From: Candidatus Staskawiczbacteria bacterium
Lineage (GTDB): Bacteria; Patescibacteriota; Minisyncoccia; Minisyncoccales; Staskawiczbacteraceae
Direction: 5' to 3'
Assembly: GCA_903831095.1 (NCBI GenBank)
Contig: CAIKWD010000026.1
Location: 136,477 to 200,476, forward strand
Length of the DNA: 64,000 nucleotides
The notes beneath the pieces were generated by a model that worked only from the letters and a program-made list of their open reading frames with translations, was not told the DNA's origin and searched no databases. The translations under genes and the position numbers were made by a program. Numbering within the stretch: position 1 is the stretch's first letter; every line of letters starts with the position of its first letter. Positions 3,705-52,803 of this stretch are shown here, in pieces.

Positions 3705-3760
3705 AATACTTGCTTGTACATTAATAATCATGTAAAGTTAAATCAACAATTTAATAATTA

Positions 3761-3900
3761 GCCTAAACCCGCAGATTTATTTGTGGGCATGGTAATAAAA
3801 GTCCGATTAAGAATAGAGATCCCATCATGGGGTTTAGCTTAATCGGCCATACTTGGAAACTTGTATGAGAGACTTTGTCTCTACCTGTGGTGGGCTTTTT
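3761..3900 (+). ncRNA. Unclassified structured RNA motif, copy 1 (leader or sRNA ending in a U-tract)
   Basis: About 140 nt homologous to the reverse complement of 44420-44555, with compensatory helix changes. GAAA-capped and UUU/UUCG-capped hairpins. Ends GTGGTGGGCTTTTT. Confidence 0.45.
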
Positions 3901-4851: not shown

Positions 4852-5529
4852 TTAGATGTTTTTTTCAGATTCTTCAGACTCGGTAAAGCTTCCATTCTCG
4901 AACTTAATCCCCTCTCCTGTCTCGCCGAAAGGTTGGTCTTTTTTGGGCGCGTGAAGTTGCTTTTGGAGATGGTTTATTTGAGCTGCCAACAGTTGCTTTG
5001 TATTTTTTGCGTCGGTTATTATTTTTTCAATTAGGCCTTGCAAAAACTTCTCTCTTTCTACTAATTCGTTGTCTTTGGCTTTGTAGTCTCCAAGCAAAGA
5101 TTCATATTTTTTTATCCAGTCTTTTTTCTCGGCTCGGTCTTCTTTTAATATCTCCAAAAACTCTCGATCAACTGTTATTTGGTCTGGCTCAATTTCCTCG
5201 GACCGCTTAGTCGCTTCGTCTGACCGCTTAAGCGGTACCGCATAAGCGGTGGGGGTACCGCTTAAGCGGTTTGCCTCAATTTCATCGGACCGCTTAGGCG
5301 GTACCGCATAAGCGGTTTCCTGAGGCACTACTTCCAACTCTTTTACCCAAAAATTTTCTTTTAAAAGAATAATGTTCCCAACTCCCTTTTCATATTTTTC
5401 ACTCAAATTTCCCTCGAGTTTCTGAGGGTCAGTCAATTTATACTTTCTAATTCTTCTTCTAATCCTTATGTCTGCAACTTCATATTTTTGGATGAATTCC
5501 TGTATTGTTAAAAAGTCGTTATTGTTCAT
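4852..5529 (-). CDS. Hypothetical protein with HTH-like N-terminus, palindrome-encoded peptide repeats and a C-terminal coiled coil
   Basis: 225 aa. The internal repeats TAYAVP(P/L)KRSDE are encoded by the CCGCTTAAGCGG palindromes at 5201-5316. The C-terminus is heptad-rich. Confidence 0.6.
   Translation of the reverse strand: MNNNDFLTIQEFIQKYEVADIRIRRRIRKYKLTDPQKLEGNLSEKYEKGVGNIILLKENFWVKELEVVPQETAYAVPPKRSDEIEANRLSGTPTAYAVPLKRSDEATKRSEEIEPDQITVDREFLEILKEDRAEKKDWIKKYESLLGDYKAKDNELVEREKFLQGLIEKIITDAKNTKQLLAAQINHLQKQLHAPKKDQPFGETGEGIKFENGSFTESEESEKNI
5201..5316. repeat. Cluster of 5-6 ACCGC(T/A)TA(A/G)GCGGT palindromes inside a CDS
   Basis: Copies at 5223-5236, 5237-5250, 5257-5270, 5289-5302 and 5303-5316, plus a degenerate copy at about 5201-5215. 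Confidence 0.85.
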
Positions 5530-5549
5530 TTTTTTGTTTTATTTTTAAG

Positions 5550-5666
5550 ACCGCTTAAGCGGTAGCGCTTAAGCGGTTTGGGAAGCGCTTAAGCGGTTTT
5601 GGGGTACCGCTTAAGCGGTAGCGCTTAAGCGGTGGGGGGGCGCTTAAGCGGTTCCGCTTAAGCGCT
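5550..5666. repeat. Intergenic array of 7 (A/G)(C/G)CGCTTAAGCG(G/C)T palindromes
   Basis: Copies at 5550-5563, 5564-5577, 5584-5597, 5606-5619, 5620-5633, 5640-5652 and 5653-5666, separated by 0-8 nt with G-runs between them. Located in the divergent intergenic region. Confidence 0.85.
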
Positions 5667-5727
5667 TTATTAATTAATTTTACCAACGTAGGAAAGCAAT
5701 GTCAACATCAAGTTTACCTAAAAACTG

Positions 5728-7451: not shown

Positions 7452-7479
7452 GTCCGTCTGACCACGGGCTTTTATTTTT
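7452..7479 (+). terminator. Rho-independent terminator after yraN
   Basis: GTCCGT-CTGACC-ACGGGC stem-loop followed by TTTTATTTTT. Confidence 0.6.
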
Positions 7480-7523: not shown

Positions 7524-7603
7524 AATCGCTCGGTAATAAACTTTTCTGCGCTATTTCGCCACTTCGTGTGCGAAGGGCTTTCGAAAAGTTCATTACCTCG
7601 CTT
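7524..7603 (+). repeat. Palindromic ~80-nt repeat element, copy a (5' of nusA)
   Basis: ATCGCTCGGTAATAAACTTTT...GAAAAGTTCATTACCTCGCTT. Homologous to 17146-17224 and 33442-33576. Confidence 0.7.
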
Positions 7604-17073: not shown

Positions 17074-17112
17074 CCTCCTTTTTTAAGTTTTAGAAAATAT
17101 ATCATATGCAAG

Positions 17113-17138
17113 CTCACTGAGTAAGTGAGTTTTATTTA
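17113..17138 (+). terminator. Terminator after clpP
   Basis: CTCACT-GAGTA-AGTGAG followed by TTTTATTTATTT. Confidence 0.55.
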
Positions 17139-17145
17139 TTTAATC

Positions 17146-17224
17146 ATCGCTCGGCAACAATCTTTTTTCCGGCTATCTGGCACTTCGTGTCTCAGAGGCC
17201 TACAAAAAGTTTATTGCCTCGCTT
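17146..17224 (+). repeat. Palindromic ~80-nt repeat element, copy b (5' of rny)
   Basis: ATCGCTCGGCAACAATCTTTTT...AAAAAGTTTATTGCCTCGCTT. Shares the central CACTTCGTGT with copy a. Confidence 0.7.
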
Positions 17225-17234
17225 TCAAAAAAAC

Positions 17235-18761
17235 ATGGATATAATAAGTTTTATAATAATATTATTGGCCTTGGGTTTGGGAATTGTTGTAGGTTACTAC
17301 ATCAGGCAAAATTTGGCCAAGAAAAGAGCAGGAACTCTTGAAGCAAAATTGCAAAAAAGAGTTATAGATGTAAAAGAAGAAACATCTAATTTAGTTAAAA
17401 ATGCGGAGAAAAAGTCTTCCGAGCTTTTGGAGAGGACACAGAAAGACATAGATGAAAGGAGAAAGGAGTTTGTAAAAGCTCAGGAACTTTTGCTGGGCAG
17501 GGAAAAGTTGCTCAACGACAGGATTGTCTCCTTTGAAACAAAGGAGAAAGATTTGCAGGACAAAGTAGAAAAATTAAGAATTTTAAAGGAAAATTTGGAG
17601 CAGTTAAGGCTTGAGGCAGAAGGCAAATTGGAAAAAGTTGCTTCCCTTTCAAGAGAAGATGCTAAAAAGGAATTATTAGCTTTAGTTGAAGTGGAGAATG
17701 AAAAAGAAATTTTAGACAGGATGAAAAGGCTTGAGGAAGGCAATCAAGATAAGTTGCAATTGAGAGCCAGGGAAATTGTGGCTTTAGCAATTCAAAAATG
17801 TGCAGTTCCACAAACTCAGGAGTTGACCACAACCAGTGTTATTTTAGCCAATGAAGATTTGAAGGGAAGAATTATTGGTAAAGAAGGCAGAAATATTAGA
17901 ACTTTTGAAAAGTTAACCGGTGTAGAACTCATTGTTGACGAAACTCCAGACTCTGTAGTTATTTCTTGTTTTAATCCTATTAGAAGACAAATTGCCAAAG
18001 TGGCTTTAGATAAGCTTATTGCCGATGGCAGAATTCAGCCAGCTAAGATTGAAGAAAAAGTTGAAGAGGCAAAAGCAGAAATTTCTGTCAAAATTAAGGA
18101 AGCTGGAGACAAAGCAACTTATGACGCAGGAGTTATTGGGCTTAATGAAAAGTTGGTGCAGATCTTGGGCAGGTTATATTATAGAACCAGTTATGGTCAG
18201 AATGTTTTGTCGCACTCAATGGAGGTTGCTTTGATATCTGAAGCAATTGCAGCAGAATTGGGAGCCAACACACAGATAGCAAAAAGAGCAGGCTTGTTGC
18301 ACGATATAGGAAAGGCCATAGACCAGCAAATTCAGGGTTCACATATAGAAATTGGTATTAAGATATTGGAGAAGTTTGGCGAATCTGAGGCCATAATTAA
18401 GGCTATGAGAGCTCACCATGGCGACTACCCAGTGGAATCGCTGGAAGCTACTATTGTCACTGTTGCAGACGCAATTTCAAGCTCAAGACCAGGTGCTAGG
18501 AAAGACTCAATGGAAAACTACCTTCAGAGGCTCAAAGACTTGGAAGACATTGCTAATAAGTTTGAAGGAGTTGAGAAAACCTATGCTATTCAAGCTGGAA
18601 GGGAAATTCGTGTGTTTGTAAAATCAGACAGGGTTGATGACTTGGGAGCTGTAAGAATGGCAAAAGCCATAGCAGGGGAGATAGAAGAAGAATTAAAATA
18701 TCCTGGTGAAATTAAAGTGGTAGTTATCCGCGAAAACCGCGTCATCGAATACGCTAGGTAA
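17235..18761 (+). CDS. rny: Ribonuclease Y
   Basis: N-terminal TM helix, coiled coil, KH domain (GRIIGKEGRNIRTFE) and HD domain (LLHDIGKA). ATG 17235 is preferred over the GTG 17187 extension through the repeat. Confidence 0.9.
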   Translation: MDIISFIIILLALGLGIVVGYYIRQNLAKKRAGTLEAKLQKRVIDVKEETSNLVKNAEKKSSELLERTQKDIDERRKEFVKAQELLLGREKLLNDRIVSFETKEKDLQDKVEKLRILKENLEQLRLEAEGKLEKVASLSREDAKKELLALVEVENEKEILDRMKRLEEGNQDKLQLRAREIVALAIQKCAVPQTQELTTTSVILANEDLKGRIIGKEGRNIRTFEKLTGVELIVDETPDSVVISCFNPIRRQIAKVALDKLIADGRIQPAKIEEKVEEAKAEISVKIKEAGDKATYDAGVIGLNEKLVQILGRLYYRTSYGQNVLSHSMEVALISEAIAAELGANTQIAKRAGLLHDIGKAIDQQIQGSHIEIGIKILEKFGESEAIIKAMRAHHGDYPVESLEATIVTVADAISSSRPGARKDSMENYLQRLKDLEDIANKFEGVEKTYAIQAGREIRVFVKSDRVDDLGAVRMAKAIAGEIEEELKYPGEIKVVVIRENRVIEYAR

Positions 18762-22157: not shown

Positions 22158-22294
22158 CGATTAACTAGTATGTTATCATAAAACTTTTCCTTTGACAATA
22201 ACACTCTTTTGCTATATAATCCAAGATAGTTTTATTTTATATTATAATTTGTTTGAACCTTGATTATCGCTCCCAAAAATATTATAATATAATT

Positions 22295-24585: not shown

Positions 24586-25377
24586 ATGGATAACATAATT
24601 GAAATTAAAAATCTAACAAAAAAGTTTAAGAATTTTACTGCCGTTGACGGCATAACTTTTGATGTAAAAAAAGGGGAAATATTTTCTTTTTTGGGGCCCA
24701 ATGGCGCGGGAAAAACAACAACTATAAAAATGCTCACAACTTTGGCCAGCCCAACATCCGGAAGTATTTTGATAAATGGATTTGACCCAGCTAAGCAACA
24801 AAATCAAGCCAGGGCTTCTTTTGGAATAGTTTTTCAAGATCCAAGTTTGGATGACGAACTTACTGCCTACGAAAATCTGAATATGCATGGCATGCTTTAC
24901 AAGATAAAAGTGAAAGAAAGAAGGGAAAGAATAAAACAACTGCTTAATTTTGTGGAGTTGTGGGATAGGAAAGACGACTTGGTAAAACATTTTTCTGGAG
25001 GAATGAAACGCCGGCTGGAAATTGCACGCGGATTTTTGCATCATCCAAAAATATTATTTTTAGACGAGCCTACAATTGGCCTTGACCCACAAACCCGAAA
25101 TCACATTTGGGAATATTTAAAGAAAATGAACAAGGAAGAGGGTACAACAGTTTTCCTTACAACTCATTATATGGAAGAGGCAGAAAAAGTTTCAAGCAGA
25201 ATTGCTATAATAGATCATGGAAAAATAATTGCCCAAGGAACATCTGAAGAACTTAAGAAATCTACAAAAACAAATTCCTTAGAAGAGGCATTTTTAAAAC
25301 TTACCGGAAGTGAAATTAGGGAAGAAACAGTTAAAAACCAAGTCATGACTGGTCATGCCAGAGTTTGGCGCAAATAA
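24586..25377 (+). CDS. ABC transporter ATP-binding protein
   Basis: Walker A GPNGAGKTT, signature FSGGMKRRLEIA, Walker B ILFLDEPT. Confidence 0.9.
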   Translation: MDNIIEIKNLTKKFKNFTAVDGITFDVKKGEIFSFLGPNGAGKTTTIKMLTTLASPTSGSILINGFDPAKQQNQARASFGIVFQDPSLDDELTAYENLNMHGMLYKIKVKERRERIKQLLNFVELWDRKDDLVKHFSGGMKRRLEIARGFLHHPKILFLDEPTIGLDPQTRNHIWEYLKKMNKEEGTTVFLTTHYMEEAEKVSSRIAIIDHGKIIAQGTSEELKKSTKTNSLEEAFLKLTGSEIREETVKNQVMTGHARVWRK

Positions 25378-25378
25378 T

Positions 25379-26125
25379 ATGATTGCAATTTACACTCTTT
25401 GGTTGAGAGAAGTTAAAAAATATTTCAGGTCAAAGTCTAGGATAATTGGCTCGTTGGGCCAACCACTTTTGTTTTTAGTTGCATTGGGTTTTGGATTGGG
25501 TCCTATTTTCAAAGCAGCAGGGCAGGGTGACTACATACAGTTTTTGGTGCCGGGAATTATTTCCATGAGTATTTTGTTTCTGGCAATATTCTCTGGCATT
25601 AGCGTAATTTGGGACAGGCAGTTTGGATATTTGAAAGAAACTTTAGTAGCCCCGGTTCCGCGTTGGCAAATAATGTTTGGCCGGACTTTGGGCGGAGCCA
25701 CAGTGGCTGTTTTGCAGGGAATAATTGTTTTTGCAATTTCTTTTGCATTTGGTTTTAGGATACACAGCTTTGGATTGTTTTTGGAAGCGTTTGTCTTTAT
25801 GTCTTTGGTCGCCTTGATTTTTACAGCCTTGGGAACGGCCATAGCCTCGGTGCTTGAGGATATGCATGGCTTCCAATTAATTATGAATTTTCTAGTAATG
25901 CCAATATTTTTTCTGTCGGGAGCTTTGTTTCCTTTAGCTGGTTTGCCAAAAGTTTTAAAAACAATTGTCATGTTTGACCCAATGTCTTATGGGGTAGATG
26001 GCTTGCGCGGAACTTTGGGAGGCATTTCACAATTTGGTTTGTTTACAGATTTTTGGATTTTGTCAGTTATAGTTGTGGTTTTAATTTCAGTCGGTAGTTA
26101 TGTTTTTTCCAAAATCCAAGTTTAG
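25379..26125 (+). CDS. ABC-2 type transporter permease
   Basis: Six hydrophobic segments. Starts 2 nt after the ATPase stop codon. Confidence 0.8.
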   Translation: MIAIYTLWLREVKKYFRSKSRIIGSLGQPLLFLVALGFGLGPIFKAAGQGDYIQFLVPGIISMSILFLAIFSGISVIWDRQFGYLKETLVAPVPRWQIMFGRTLGGATVAVLQGIIVFAISFAFGFRIHSFGLFLEAFVFMSLVALIFTALGTAIASVLEDMHGFQLIMNFLVMPIFFLSGALFPLAGLPKVLKTIVMFDPMSYGVDGLRGTLGGISQFGLFTDFWILSVIVVVLISVGSYVFSKIQV

Positions 26126-33169: not shown

Positions 33170-34018
33170 GTGAAAAAAGTAATTGTGCTAAATAAAAAAG
33201 AAGGTCAGACTCCGCTTTTTGCGTTGGAGGAATTTAGGAAGAAAAATTCAGAATATATAGACGTGCCAATGACTTACGCAGGTAGACTCGACCCAATGGC
33301 CAGCGGAGTTTTGATTGTGTTGGCAGGGGAGGAAACAAAGAACAAAGAGAAATATTTAGCTTTGGACAAGGAATATGAATTTAGTGTGCTGTTTGGTTTT
33401 AACACTGATACTTATGACATTTTAGGAAAAGTTGTAAAACAATCGCTCGACAACAAATTTCTCTTAGCTCAGCAACAAACTTTTTTCGGCAAGCAGGAAC
33501 TCGCTTTGCCTCTTCGGGCAAGTCGACCTGGGCCTTCAAAAAGTTTATTGCTTCGCTCTGAGTTTATTGTCTCGCTTGTTAAAAATAATTTAAAATATTT
33601 TAAAGGAAGGTTAAAGCAGAAATATCCAATTTATTCTTCTAAAAATGTAAATGGAAAACCACTCTTTAGTTATGCTAGAAGTGGGGAAGATGTAGAAATA
33701 CCAGAGAGAGAAATTTTTATTAAAAGTATAAAGCTGGGAAAAATTAGGGAAATTGGTAGTGAAAAATTAATTTTGAATGTTAAAAAAAGAGTAGAGAAAG
33801 TTGATGGAGATTTTAGGCAAAAGGAAATACTGAAAATATGGCAGAAAAAATTGCTAGGCAGTAAAAAATTGCAGTCATTCTATATTGCCGACTTTAAAAT
33901 AAAATGTACAAGCGGAACTTATGTGAGAACCTTGGCAAATTCTTTGGGAGAAAAAATGAAAATTCCTGCGTTGGCGTTTTCTATAAAAAGGACAAAAGTA
34001 GGAAAATATAAATTATAA
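33170..34018 (+). CDS. truB: tRNA pseudouridine(55) synthase TruB carrying an in-frame repeat insertion
   Basis: AGRLDPMASGVLIV catalytic Asp motif and YPIYSSKNVNGKPLFSYARSG. About 45 extra codons lie between conserved blocks. Confidence 0.85.
   Translation: MKKVIVLNKKEGQTPLFALEEFRKKNSEYIDVPMTYAGRLDPMASGVLIVLAGEETKNKEKYLALDKEYEFSVLFGFNTDTYDILGKVVKQSLDNKFLLAQQQTFFGKQELALPLRASRPGPSKSLLLRSEFIVSLVKNNLKYFKGRLKQKYPIYSSKNVNGKPLFSYARSGEDVEIPEREIFIKSIKLGKIREIGSEKLILNVKKRVEKVDGDFRQKEILKIWQKKLLGSKKLQSFYIADFKIKCTSGTYVRTLANSLGEKMKIPALAFSIKRTKVGKYKL
33442..33576 (+). repeat. Palindromic repeat element, copy c (nested/double, inside truB, in-frame)
   Basis: Outer arms ATCGCTCGACAACAAA / TTTATTGTCTCGCT. 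Inner arms GCTCAGCAACAAACTTTTT / AAAAAGTTTATTGCTTCGCT. Confidence 0.7.
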
Positions 34019-44419: not shown

Positions 44420-44555
44420 AAAAAGCCCACCACGGGTAGAGACCGAAGTCTCTCATATAGGTTTCCCTATACGGCGATCAAACACAACCCCATGATGGGT
44501 TCTTTATGTTTGATCGTCTTTAGTGCCATGCCCATAGATAACTATGAGTTTAGGC
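44420..44555 (-). ncRNA. Unclassified structured RNA motif, copy 2
   Basis: Homologous to 3761-3900. Contains a C(UUCG)G-capped hairpin and a GAAA-capped hairpin. Ends GTGGTGGGCTTTTT about 35 nt before ATG 44382. Confidence 0.45.
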
Positions 44556-44634
44556 GAATTATTAAATTGTTATTTCAATTATGCCTTTAAAATGTTAAAT
44601 AATCAACAAAATAGATAATATTTAGTGACAATCA

Positions 44635-52554: not shown

Positions 52555-52659
52555 TCTCTTTTGTCTGTTCTTGATTATAGAATATTTTAGAGTTAAGATA
52601 AATTACAATTTAATATTGATTGAGTTGCCTAAAACCCTAAAAAGTCATGGCACAAAATT

Positions 52660-52803
52660 CCTAAGAATAATACCGAACACGTCGTTCAGGCCTCTTATTC
52701 TTAGGTCGTATATCGAAAGATGTACGGGAGAGCAATCTCCGGCTTGGCGGCGTGTTCCGTGTTTACAGACTCAACACACTAGCCATAAAAAGCTGGTTTT
52801 TTG
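52660..52803 (+). ncRNA. Candidate structured 5' leader RNA
   Basis: An 11-bp stem CCTAAGAATAA/TTATTCTTAGG, hairpin CGTATATC-GAAA-GATGTACG, hairpin GGAGA-GCAA-TCTCC, and a weak terminator-like hairpin with T6 ending 18 nt before ATG 52821. Local GC is well above the flanks. Confidence 0.35.

Follow-up and report, generated by a model that had tools for sequence, protein, structure and literature searches.

The truB gene, which encodes tRNA pseudouridine-55 synthase, raises a question in the 64,000-nucleotide (nt) stretch of Candidatus Staskawiczbacteria DNA analyzed here (contig CAIKWD010000026.1, hereafter the window): what is the segment of about 135 nt, free of stop codons, that lies between conserved blocks of its coding sequence? 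A first reading of the DNA, the original prediction, proposed a palindromic repeat inserted in frame, analogous to the Rickettsia palindromic elements (RPEs). Our analysis revealed that the truB segment is a copy of a dispersed palindromic repeat, 75-95 nt in length, of Candidatus Staskawiczbacteria. Taken as a whole, the evidence makes it quite probable that this repeat is non-autonomous and Staskawiczbacteria-specific and that, within truB, it is translated and tolerated in an RPE-like manner.

The proposed extent of the segment, about 135 nt or 45 stop-free codons, proved correct (Table 1). The segment is a composite of two left arms (L1 and L2), a core and two right arms (R1 and R2), which bears out the nested or doubled structure suspected from the letters. 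A Hamming scan for 21-nt arms with a shuffle control placed L1 at 33444-33464, L2 at 33466-33486, R1 at 33538-33558 and R2 at 33557-33577; L1 showed four mismatches to the 21-nt left-arm consensus and R2 five to the right-arm consensus. The entire segment folds into a single long hairpin (z = -5.5 for the + strand, -8.1 for the - strand). Doubled outer arms were seen again in copies from L011, L023, L033, L041 and L056 (numbers with the prefix L denote the sources of related DNA), and the truB core, designated type A, matches copies at non-orthologous sites in L023, L031, L036, L037 and L048.

Two further elements in the window, at 7524-7603 and 17146-17224, had been proposed as homologs of the truB segment. 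The 64 kb contain exactly three matches to the left-arm pattern ATCGCTCGRYAAYAA, every one of them on the + strand (7525, 17146 and 33442). For the right-arm pattern AAAAGTTYATTRCYTCGCT, matches were found at 7584, 17205 and 33539; as many matches were obtained in 0 of 100 shuffles. A joint arm-gap-arm pattern retrieved these three loci alone, with 0 expected from 100 shuffles, and nhmmer returned E-values of 4e-26, 2e-18 and 8e-13 for the three copies, confirming the homology. The compensatory T-A versus C-G change reported between the two simple copies, a and b, is also real and recurs across the family. Copy b lies upstream of the RNase Y gene (rny), and the corresponding site is filled by a different core in L023 and L071. 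Searches of the window with nhmmer profiles, built from the whole element and from each arm separately, yielded no further copies. A marginal nhmmer match at 18012-18025 was ordinary rny coding sequence, and two candidate decayed remnants that were spotted visually, one upstream of the 9888 gene (TTTACTCGCTTGCTC) and one near 22220 (TATCGCTCCC), were unsupported by the profiles.

The likeness between these loci extends well beyond the window. A pattern scan with a single genome for each species yielded 49 loci, of which nearly all lie in metagenome-assembled genomes of Candidatus Staskawiczbacteria, and several genomes had 5-7 or more matches to the strict pattern. At least 120 loci were found in a metagenome pattern scan and 0 in viral contigs, which gives no sign of a phage vector. 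A census by Hamming scan for arms in 177 sources (1.2 Mb of related DNA) collected 189 non-redundant copies, almost all from Staskawiczbacteria. Element lengths peak at approximately 77 nt and 93 nt, alongside a 45-nt core-less form and nested forms of up to 136 nt. The imperfect inverted arms of about 21 nt, (T)CGCTCGGCAACAAACTTTTTT and AAAAAGTTTATTGCCTCGCT(T), are nearly invariant across the family, and the cores are rod-like, base-paired and fall into a few discrete types. The minimal core-less form (L021:3175-3219), in which the arms are joined by 3 nt, lies upstream of trmD, a site that holds full elements in other genomes.

No Rfam family covers the element, either in the whole window at gathering thresholds or in the truB region at E <= 10; the matches obtained were to tRNAs, to three LOOT RNAs at other positions and, by chance, a single one to UPD-PKc. 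A description of the family was likewise not found in full-text searches on repeat elements and on the candidate phyla radiation (CPR); as far as these searches and Rfam show, the family is previously undescribed. Some copies lie on contigs labelled Solirubrobacteraceae or Saccharibacteria (L006, accession CAVRQK010000009.1; L009, L013, L019, L028, L045 and L052). These contigs are probably mis-binned or mislabelled Staskawiczbacteria-like DNA and not a true occurrence in other taxa.

The hairpin of the element was evaluated by covariation. Because a mixed-subfamily alignment (A2) gave arm pairs only, the core helices required an alignment restricted to 70 long-type copies (A4), whose consensus hairpin has 27 pairs. 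In this alignment, 96.2% of the cells were paired and double changes occurred at 14 of the 27 pairs. Compensated cells numbered 128, compared with 39 ± 4.5 in shuffled alignments and at most 12 when partners were slid. The hairpin is thus kept by compensatory change, and covariation of this strength indicates that it is under selection, whether as RNA or as single-stranded DNA. The fold z-scores ranged from -4.2 to -8.1.

The gene that holds the insert encodes a recognizable TruB protein. Pfam TruB_N matches the window TruB at 1.1e-31, split into two separated stretches, and all residues invariant across 74 aligned TruB homologs are found in it. An AlphaFold2 model reached a mean predicted local distance difference test score (pLDDT) of 88.9 and a predicted template modeling score of 0.83, with E. 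coli TruB (1k8w) as the best fold match; the flanks of the insert scored above 90, a helix at residues 96-107 is modelled with moderate confidence, and the pLDDT of residues 111-130 is 56-58. The model therefore predicts that the TruB fold is kept despite the insert. In the HMMER alignment, window residues 92-140 (49 aa) correspond to E. coli residues 99-111, so the figure of about 16 residues first given for this interval in E. coli was approximately right and the aligned count is 13. Not counting the insert, TruB proteins of the clade are about 245-255 aa long, with TruB_N as the sole domain matched, and the C-terminal PUA domain of E. coli TruB is apparently absent from them.

An alignment of orthologs had been proposed as a check on the insertion. 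Most of the 120 best TruB homologs, at 245-256 aa, have a short loop at this site (median 19 aa by the chosen boundaries) and no insert. Element-derived sequence was present in approximately 10 of the closest relatives, and 5-mer peptides derived solely from intergenic copies recur in the loops of approximately 10 close homologs. In L003 and L001, truB holds just one element, whose core is that of the window copy; in L054, a window-type core is displaced by one T, which puts it in another frame; L056 combines a different core with extra arms, L055 has a long complex insert, and in L004 a loop of normal length is built from R1 and R2 alone, with both left arms and the core missing. The arm reads as SLGNKLF, SATNFF or ARQQTFF depending on the lineage, using all three frames and varying lengths. 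In comparisons between the window, L001 and L003, identity was 98-100% for the 63-nt core and 74-77% for the flanking truB DNA (best 63-nt window 0.90); the element arms are 67-75% identical and show compensatory changes. As the identity of the core far exceeds that of the flanking gene, it is the nucleotide sequence that is conserved and not the peptide, contrary to the condition under which the original prediction would have been refuted.

These comparisons bear directly on whether the segment is an ordinary lineage-specific expansion of a TruB loop, arising at the protein level and resembling the other two loci by coincidence. The site is indeed a variable loop among TruB orthologs. However, the nhmmer match to the family profile (E = 4e-26), a core identical to intergenic copies of other genomes, the use of three reading frames among orthologs and a nucleotide conservation far above that of the gene refute this explanation, which we regard as virtually untenable. 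The truB insertion is old, common to a subclade of Staskawiczbacteria, and not recent. The comparison shows that in the ancestor of this subclade one copy entered the TruB loop before the helix that corresponds to E. coli residues ~104-115. Later, its arms were duplicated or nested, its core was replaced, indels shifted its frame and parts of it were deleted, but the frame of the gene was always kept.

In-frame copies were found in two genes only, truB and mnmA, the latter encoding tRNA 2-thiouridylase. The mnmA copies directly follow a 'vatGHYa' motif; this one site is filled in at least five genomes and holds three different cores. All genuine copies within open reading frames (ORFs) keep the frame and are free of stops, in truB in seven loci (the window, L001, L003, L054, L055, L056 and the L004 remnant) as well as in mnmA. 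Since frame and openness are kept despite varied lengths and frames, which excision would not impose, read-through translation is the economical inference. Transcription and translation of the insert would thus give TruB approximately 45 additional residues, tolerated by the enzyme as a flexible segment at its surface, and the peptide itself presumably has no selected function; FFGKQELALPLR is an example of the peptide expected from the translated insert. The element sequence is permissive in this respect, with 1.97 of 3 sense frames open per copy, compared with 0.92 in shuffles, and 1.05 antisense frames. The right junctions of the window truB copy (TCTCGCTTGTTAAAAATAA) and the L034 mnmA copy (CCTCGCTTGTTAAAAGCGG) have the 14 nt CTCGCTTGTTAAAA in common despite lying in different genes and frames; this common stretch may be part of the 3' tail of the element or reflect a target preference.

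The original prediction had left room for removal of the insert at the RNA level, by an intron-like or bulge-helix-bulge-type excision that would yield a TruB without the 45 residues. Such excision would be in line with the very stable hairpin of the element and with the sense orientation of its copies, as introns require. Archaeal cbf5, a homolog of truB, carries an intron spliced from its mRNA, which is a further point for this idea. Nevertheless, the truB and mnmA copies all keep the frame without a stop, no Rfam ribozyme or intron family matches, and the base of the hairpin is a symmetric 2x2 loop plus a 1x1 mismatch and not two 3-nt bulges 4 bp apart. Removal is thus disfavored, and we find it hardly credible.

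Evidence for gain or loss of copies came from filled and empty orthologous junctions. L020 is filled and L005 empty at two sites, and L046 is filled at a site that is empty in the window, where the flanking proteins are 82-85% identical. The comparison showed that copies are gained or lost at orthologous sites and that the inserted unit comprises, besides the hairpin, an A/T-rich tail of about 17 nt. In addition, one genome-specific apical variant is common to three loci of a single genome (L008 and, twice, L011), which argues for recent copying within that genome. Nested arms are frequent in the family, and the core at a given orthologous site often varies between genomes, suggesting that new copies enter resident elements or swap cores by recombination through the arms. 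Such recombination would explain a 'young' truB core inside an old insertion.

The copies are distributed with a pronounced polarity. At least 95% are in sense orientation: among the 189, 123 lie in sense between two co-directional genes, 14 after a stop and 11 before a start with the other side unknown, 10 at convergent ends in sense to the upstream gene, and 6 at divergent starts, reading in sense with the downstream gene. Clearly antisense copies number only 3 (Table 1); their left end is 6-8 nt from the downstream start codon and the usual A/T-rich tail is missing. Five calls of 'antisense in ORF' and three of 'sense in ORF' were artefacts of short or over-extended open frames. The median distance is 4 nt from the stop codon to the element and 10 nt from the element to the next ATG. 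At the 3' base of the stem (..CCUCGCUU), CTT (CUU in RNA) follows CCTCG (CCUCG) in 112 of 174 copies. The RPE-like, in-frame character of the family proposed in the original prediction was supported for truB and mnmA, with the correction that genic copies are rare, and the normal place of the element is a sense spacer between co-directional genes. Downstream genes are diverse (112 proteins in 63 clusters, with trmD, an M50 protease gene, yqeY, rpsG, rpsP, rny and frr recurring), which ruled out the idea of a regulon. A Shine-Dalgarno-like 4-mer precedes only 12 of 56 window genes, and the leaders are A/T-rich. A TATAAT-like box often stands no more than about 15 nt before the ATG of window genes, which suggests that gene leaders in the window are very short or absent.

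This distribution is what would be expected if the hairpin were, first and foremost, a cis-acting RNA module with a function in polycistronic mRNAs, spread through the genome by copying, with the truB and mnmA copies as by-products, an account that overlaps with the preferred one and that we hold to be a tentative but serious possibility. In one version, the element is an intercistronic processing or stability element cleaved near the conserved CUU at its 3' base, so that the upstream cistron would end in a protective hairpin and the downstream cistron would begin with a short A/U-rich leader. In the other, it provides translational coupling, in which a ribosome terminating beside the 5' arm melts the hairpin. 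Several observations agree with such a module: at least 164 intergenic copies are sense to the nearest gene, the spacing to stop and start is tight, CUU recurs at the stem base, the A/T-rich tail comes with the inserted unit, leaders are A/U-rich and seldom carry a Shine-Dalgarno-like motif, covariation is strong, and the same sites are filled across species. Moreover, a stem-base CUU marks the processing of tigRNAs, the guide RNAs considered below, apparently by a host RNase (bioRxiv 10.64898/2026.09.09.750476).

The strand asymmetry of the hairpin points the other way. The antisense transcript is predicted to fold better in 62 of 65 copies (mean -39.1 kcal/mol, compared with -33.7 kcal/mol for the sense transcript), because the sense arms keep a C.A mismatch, conserved in 36 of 38 parsed copies, whose counterpart on the other strand is U.G; for a selected RNA, wobbles would be expected on the sense strand. 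The core, unlike the arms, has a conserved U.G on the sense strand (alignment columns 44/69). The selected fold may therefore be single-stranded DNA of the bottom strand; alternatively, a weakened sense hairpin may be what mRNAs tolerate. Empty orthologous sites indicate that the element is dispensable at a given junction, and the diversity of the downstream genes also speaks against a cis-acting module as its primary nature.

According to the preferred explanation, a translated and tolerated non-autonomous repeat, an element with imperfect inverted arms is dispersed through Staskawiczbacteria genomes, and one copy reached the TruB loop in the subclade ancestor and was then remodelled with the frame kept. 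The high conservation of the core would result from copying between family members, through re-insertion into resident arms or gene conversion, from selection on the hairpin, or from both. The family would persist mainly in sense between a stop and the next start, where the hairpin and its A/U-rich 3' tail would be compatible with, and possibly useful for, expression of both neighboring genes. The element may be selfish in nature, and we infer both its mode of mobility and its role at the RNA level from the patterns described above.

A number of observations weigh against this explanation. Target-site duplication is absent at the three filled/empty junctions, no transposase partner was found for the element, and no left/right arm pairs 0.5-2 kb apart, which would indicate an autonomous partner, were present in 54 sources short of whole genomes (the window and L001-L053). 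Orthologous sites hold different cores depending on the genome (upstream of trmD, rny, rpsP, rpsG, yqeY and the M50 protease gene, and within truB and mnmA), so that core turnover at stable sites fits better than random transposition. The truB core is more conserved than its arms, the reverse of what a miniature transposable element with inverted repeats (MITE) mobilized via its terminal repeats would show. The near-absolute sense polarity demands either a transcription-linked mechanism or selection on RNA. Finally, the predicted translation of the insert is read from frame conservation only.

To place the family among known systems, we compared it with RPEs, which proved its closest analog. 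The peptide segment of RPEs is thought to be fold-compatible and occurs in frame in unrelated genes, and in three of the ten RPE families nearly half of the copies lie in ORFs (PMC10969869). Like RPEs, and especially RPE-1, the Staskawiczbacteria elements are short palindromic repeats (~100-150 bp in this comparison) of reduced-genome, host-dependent bacteria, located in intergenic regions and in frame in housekeeping genes, with no known transposase on either side. The differences are considerable. The host belongs to another phylum (Patescibacteria/CPR), and the likeness is one of behavior, with apparently no kinship in sequence. In-gene copies are rare, with 2 host genes among 189 copies, and three frames are used instead of one conserved peptide. 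Furthermore, the elements are at least 95% sense, sit tightly between stop and start, and have cores replaced at fixed sites.

Similarities also exist with Correia/nemis elements of Neisseria, ERIC/IRU, BOX, RUP and REP/BIME repeats, which are likewise non-autonomous long hairpins in transcribed intergenic DNA, some of them affecting mRNA processing or stability (PMC10969869, PMC3184786). Unlike MITE- and REP-like repeats, the Staskawiczbacteria elements leave no TA or other target duplication, are almost exclusively sense, and have a core more conserved than their ends; unlike REPs, they lack a GTAG or CGTC tag. Neither the target-site duplication nor the cognate transposase of the classical MITE definition was thus found, while the features shared by RPE- and MITE-like families are present: dispersed copies, an inverted-repeat hairpin, in-frame genic copies absent from orthologs, and presence/absence polymorphism. 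Integron attC sites, REP/RAYT, DNA-uptake sequences, H/ACA-like guides and intrinsic terminators were rejected by inspection only, for a misfit of motifs or copy density or for the absent U-tract downstream of the hairpin.

A structural parallel was also provided by the stem-loop guide RNAs (tigRNAs) of systems with tandem interspaced guide RNAs (TIGR) in CPR bacteria, which have an extended terminal stem, a 5-bp central stem, CUU at the stem base and in-frame intragenic placement; TIGR-Tas systems with a dead-RuvC TasR are known in Staskawiczbacteria (bioRxiv 10.64898/2026.09.09.750476; PMC12045711). The palindromic elements share with the CsTasR tigRNA the extended palindromic terminal stem, a small central hairpin of about 5 bp, inner segments of 15-18 nt on each side, the CUU at the 3' stem base, occasional in-frame placement in a disordered loop of a gene product, and the taxon. 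They could therefore be dispersed or orphan guide units of a TIGR-Tas system. However, the copies are single and dispersed among housekeeping genes, with no tandem array adjoining a tas gene: in the window, whose scan for a Nop domain was not exhaustive, they are 9.6 and 16.3 kb apart, by nusA, by rny and in truB, and at other loci they are separated by housekeeping genes. Their inner segments pair mutually with covariation and form few conserved classes across loci and species, in place of unique, variable spacers. The arms are the most conserved part of the family, whereas tigRNA stems are described as variable, and inspection of the alignment showed no consistent CCA/UG box pair beside the inner segments. 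We consider identity with tigRNA units very unlikely; the resemblance is a lead for the processing machinery and not a classification.

Combining this lead with the placement of the elements, one may imagine an RNA-level operon system of Staskawiczbacteria in which the hairpins, more than tolerated selfish DNA, are sense-only modules between stop and start, recognized at their arms and CUU by the machinery that matures tigRNAs. We judge this unlikely. If true, this machinery would control where cistrons end, how stable mRNAs are or how translation is coupled throughout the genome, and through the copies in truB and mnmA the expression of two tRNA-modification enzymes would be coupled to it. 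A bolder version would make the hairpins the evolutionary source, or a dispersed relative, of stem-loop TIGR units.

In-frame palindromic insertions in housekeeping genes have so far been a textbook peculiarity of Rickettsia, and the same phenomenon in an unrelated CPR lineage with ultra-small genomes suggests that it recurs in reduced genomes. The sense bias, stop-start placement, CUU and core replacement offer a handle on the organization of operon mRNAs in CPR bacteria and on transposase-free spread; the rules of polarity and placement set the family above a routine new MITE. For CPR annotation, such elements inflate or split domain hits, as with TruB_N in two pieces, and can be mistaken for lineage-specific protein insertions.

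Table 1. Positions of truB, of the palindromic elements and of related sites. Positions without a prefix are those of the window; others are preceded by the source.
Feature	Position	Strand	Remarks
truB (tRNA pseudouridine-55 synthase)	33170-34018	+	282-aa ORF, no in-frame stop; hosts the insertion
Composite palindromic element in truB	33442-33577	+	Residues 92-136, 45 aa, in frame, stop-free
Outer left arm L1 (ATCGCTCGACAACAAATTTCTCTT)	33442-33465	+	Pairs with R2 in the fold; left-arm hidden Markov model E 0.016
Inner complete element	33466-33558	+	nhmmer E = 4.4e-26
Left arm L2	33466-33486	+	Part of the inner element
Type A core	33487-33537	+	Apical stem-loop 33505-33522
Right arm R1	33538-33558	+	Part of the inner element
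Outer right arm R2 (TGAGTTTATTGTCTCGCTT)	33559-33577	+	Encodes helix start ..EFIVSL
Copy a, short core	7526-7603	+	12 nt 5' of the nusA ATG (7616); 3' of terminator-like hairpin 7452-7469
Copy b, short core	17146-17224	+	10 nt 5' of the rny ATG (17235); 3' of terminator-like hairpin 17110-17132
Empty site	25375-25381	+	Stop and next ATG 1 nt apart (TAATATG); filled in L046
In-frame copies in mnmA	L016:3165-3243, L022:2092-2186, L034:6426-6504, L052:2636-2728, L104:7044-7156 (L104/L164)
Clearly antisense copies	L075:4849-4930, L084:3155-3231, L106:1118-1194

Other repeats and RNAs were also observed in the window. The three Rfam matches to LOOT RNA (RF03000), at 3760-3882 (+), 44438-44556 (-) and 52626-52740 (+), scored 69-84 bits against a gathering threshold of 46.4; each is intergenic, follows an AT-rich stretch 'ACAATTTAATA(A/T)T' and is unrelated to the palindromic element. 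A second palindromic family, composed of ACCGCTTAAGCGGT units in which CCGCTTAAGCGG is self-complementary, was present at 2114-2164, 5181-5338 and 5549-5679. These repeats form tandem clusters over and just past the 5' part of the minus-strand ORF 4852-5529 and occur once more at approximately 2114.

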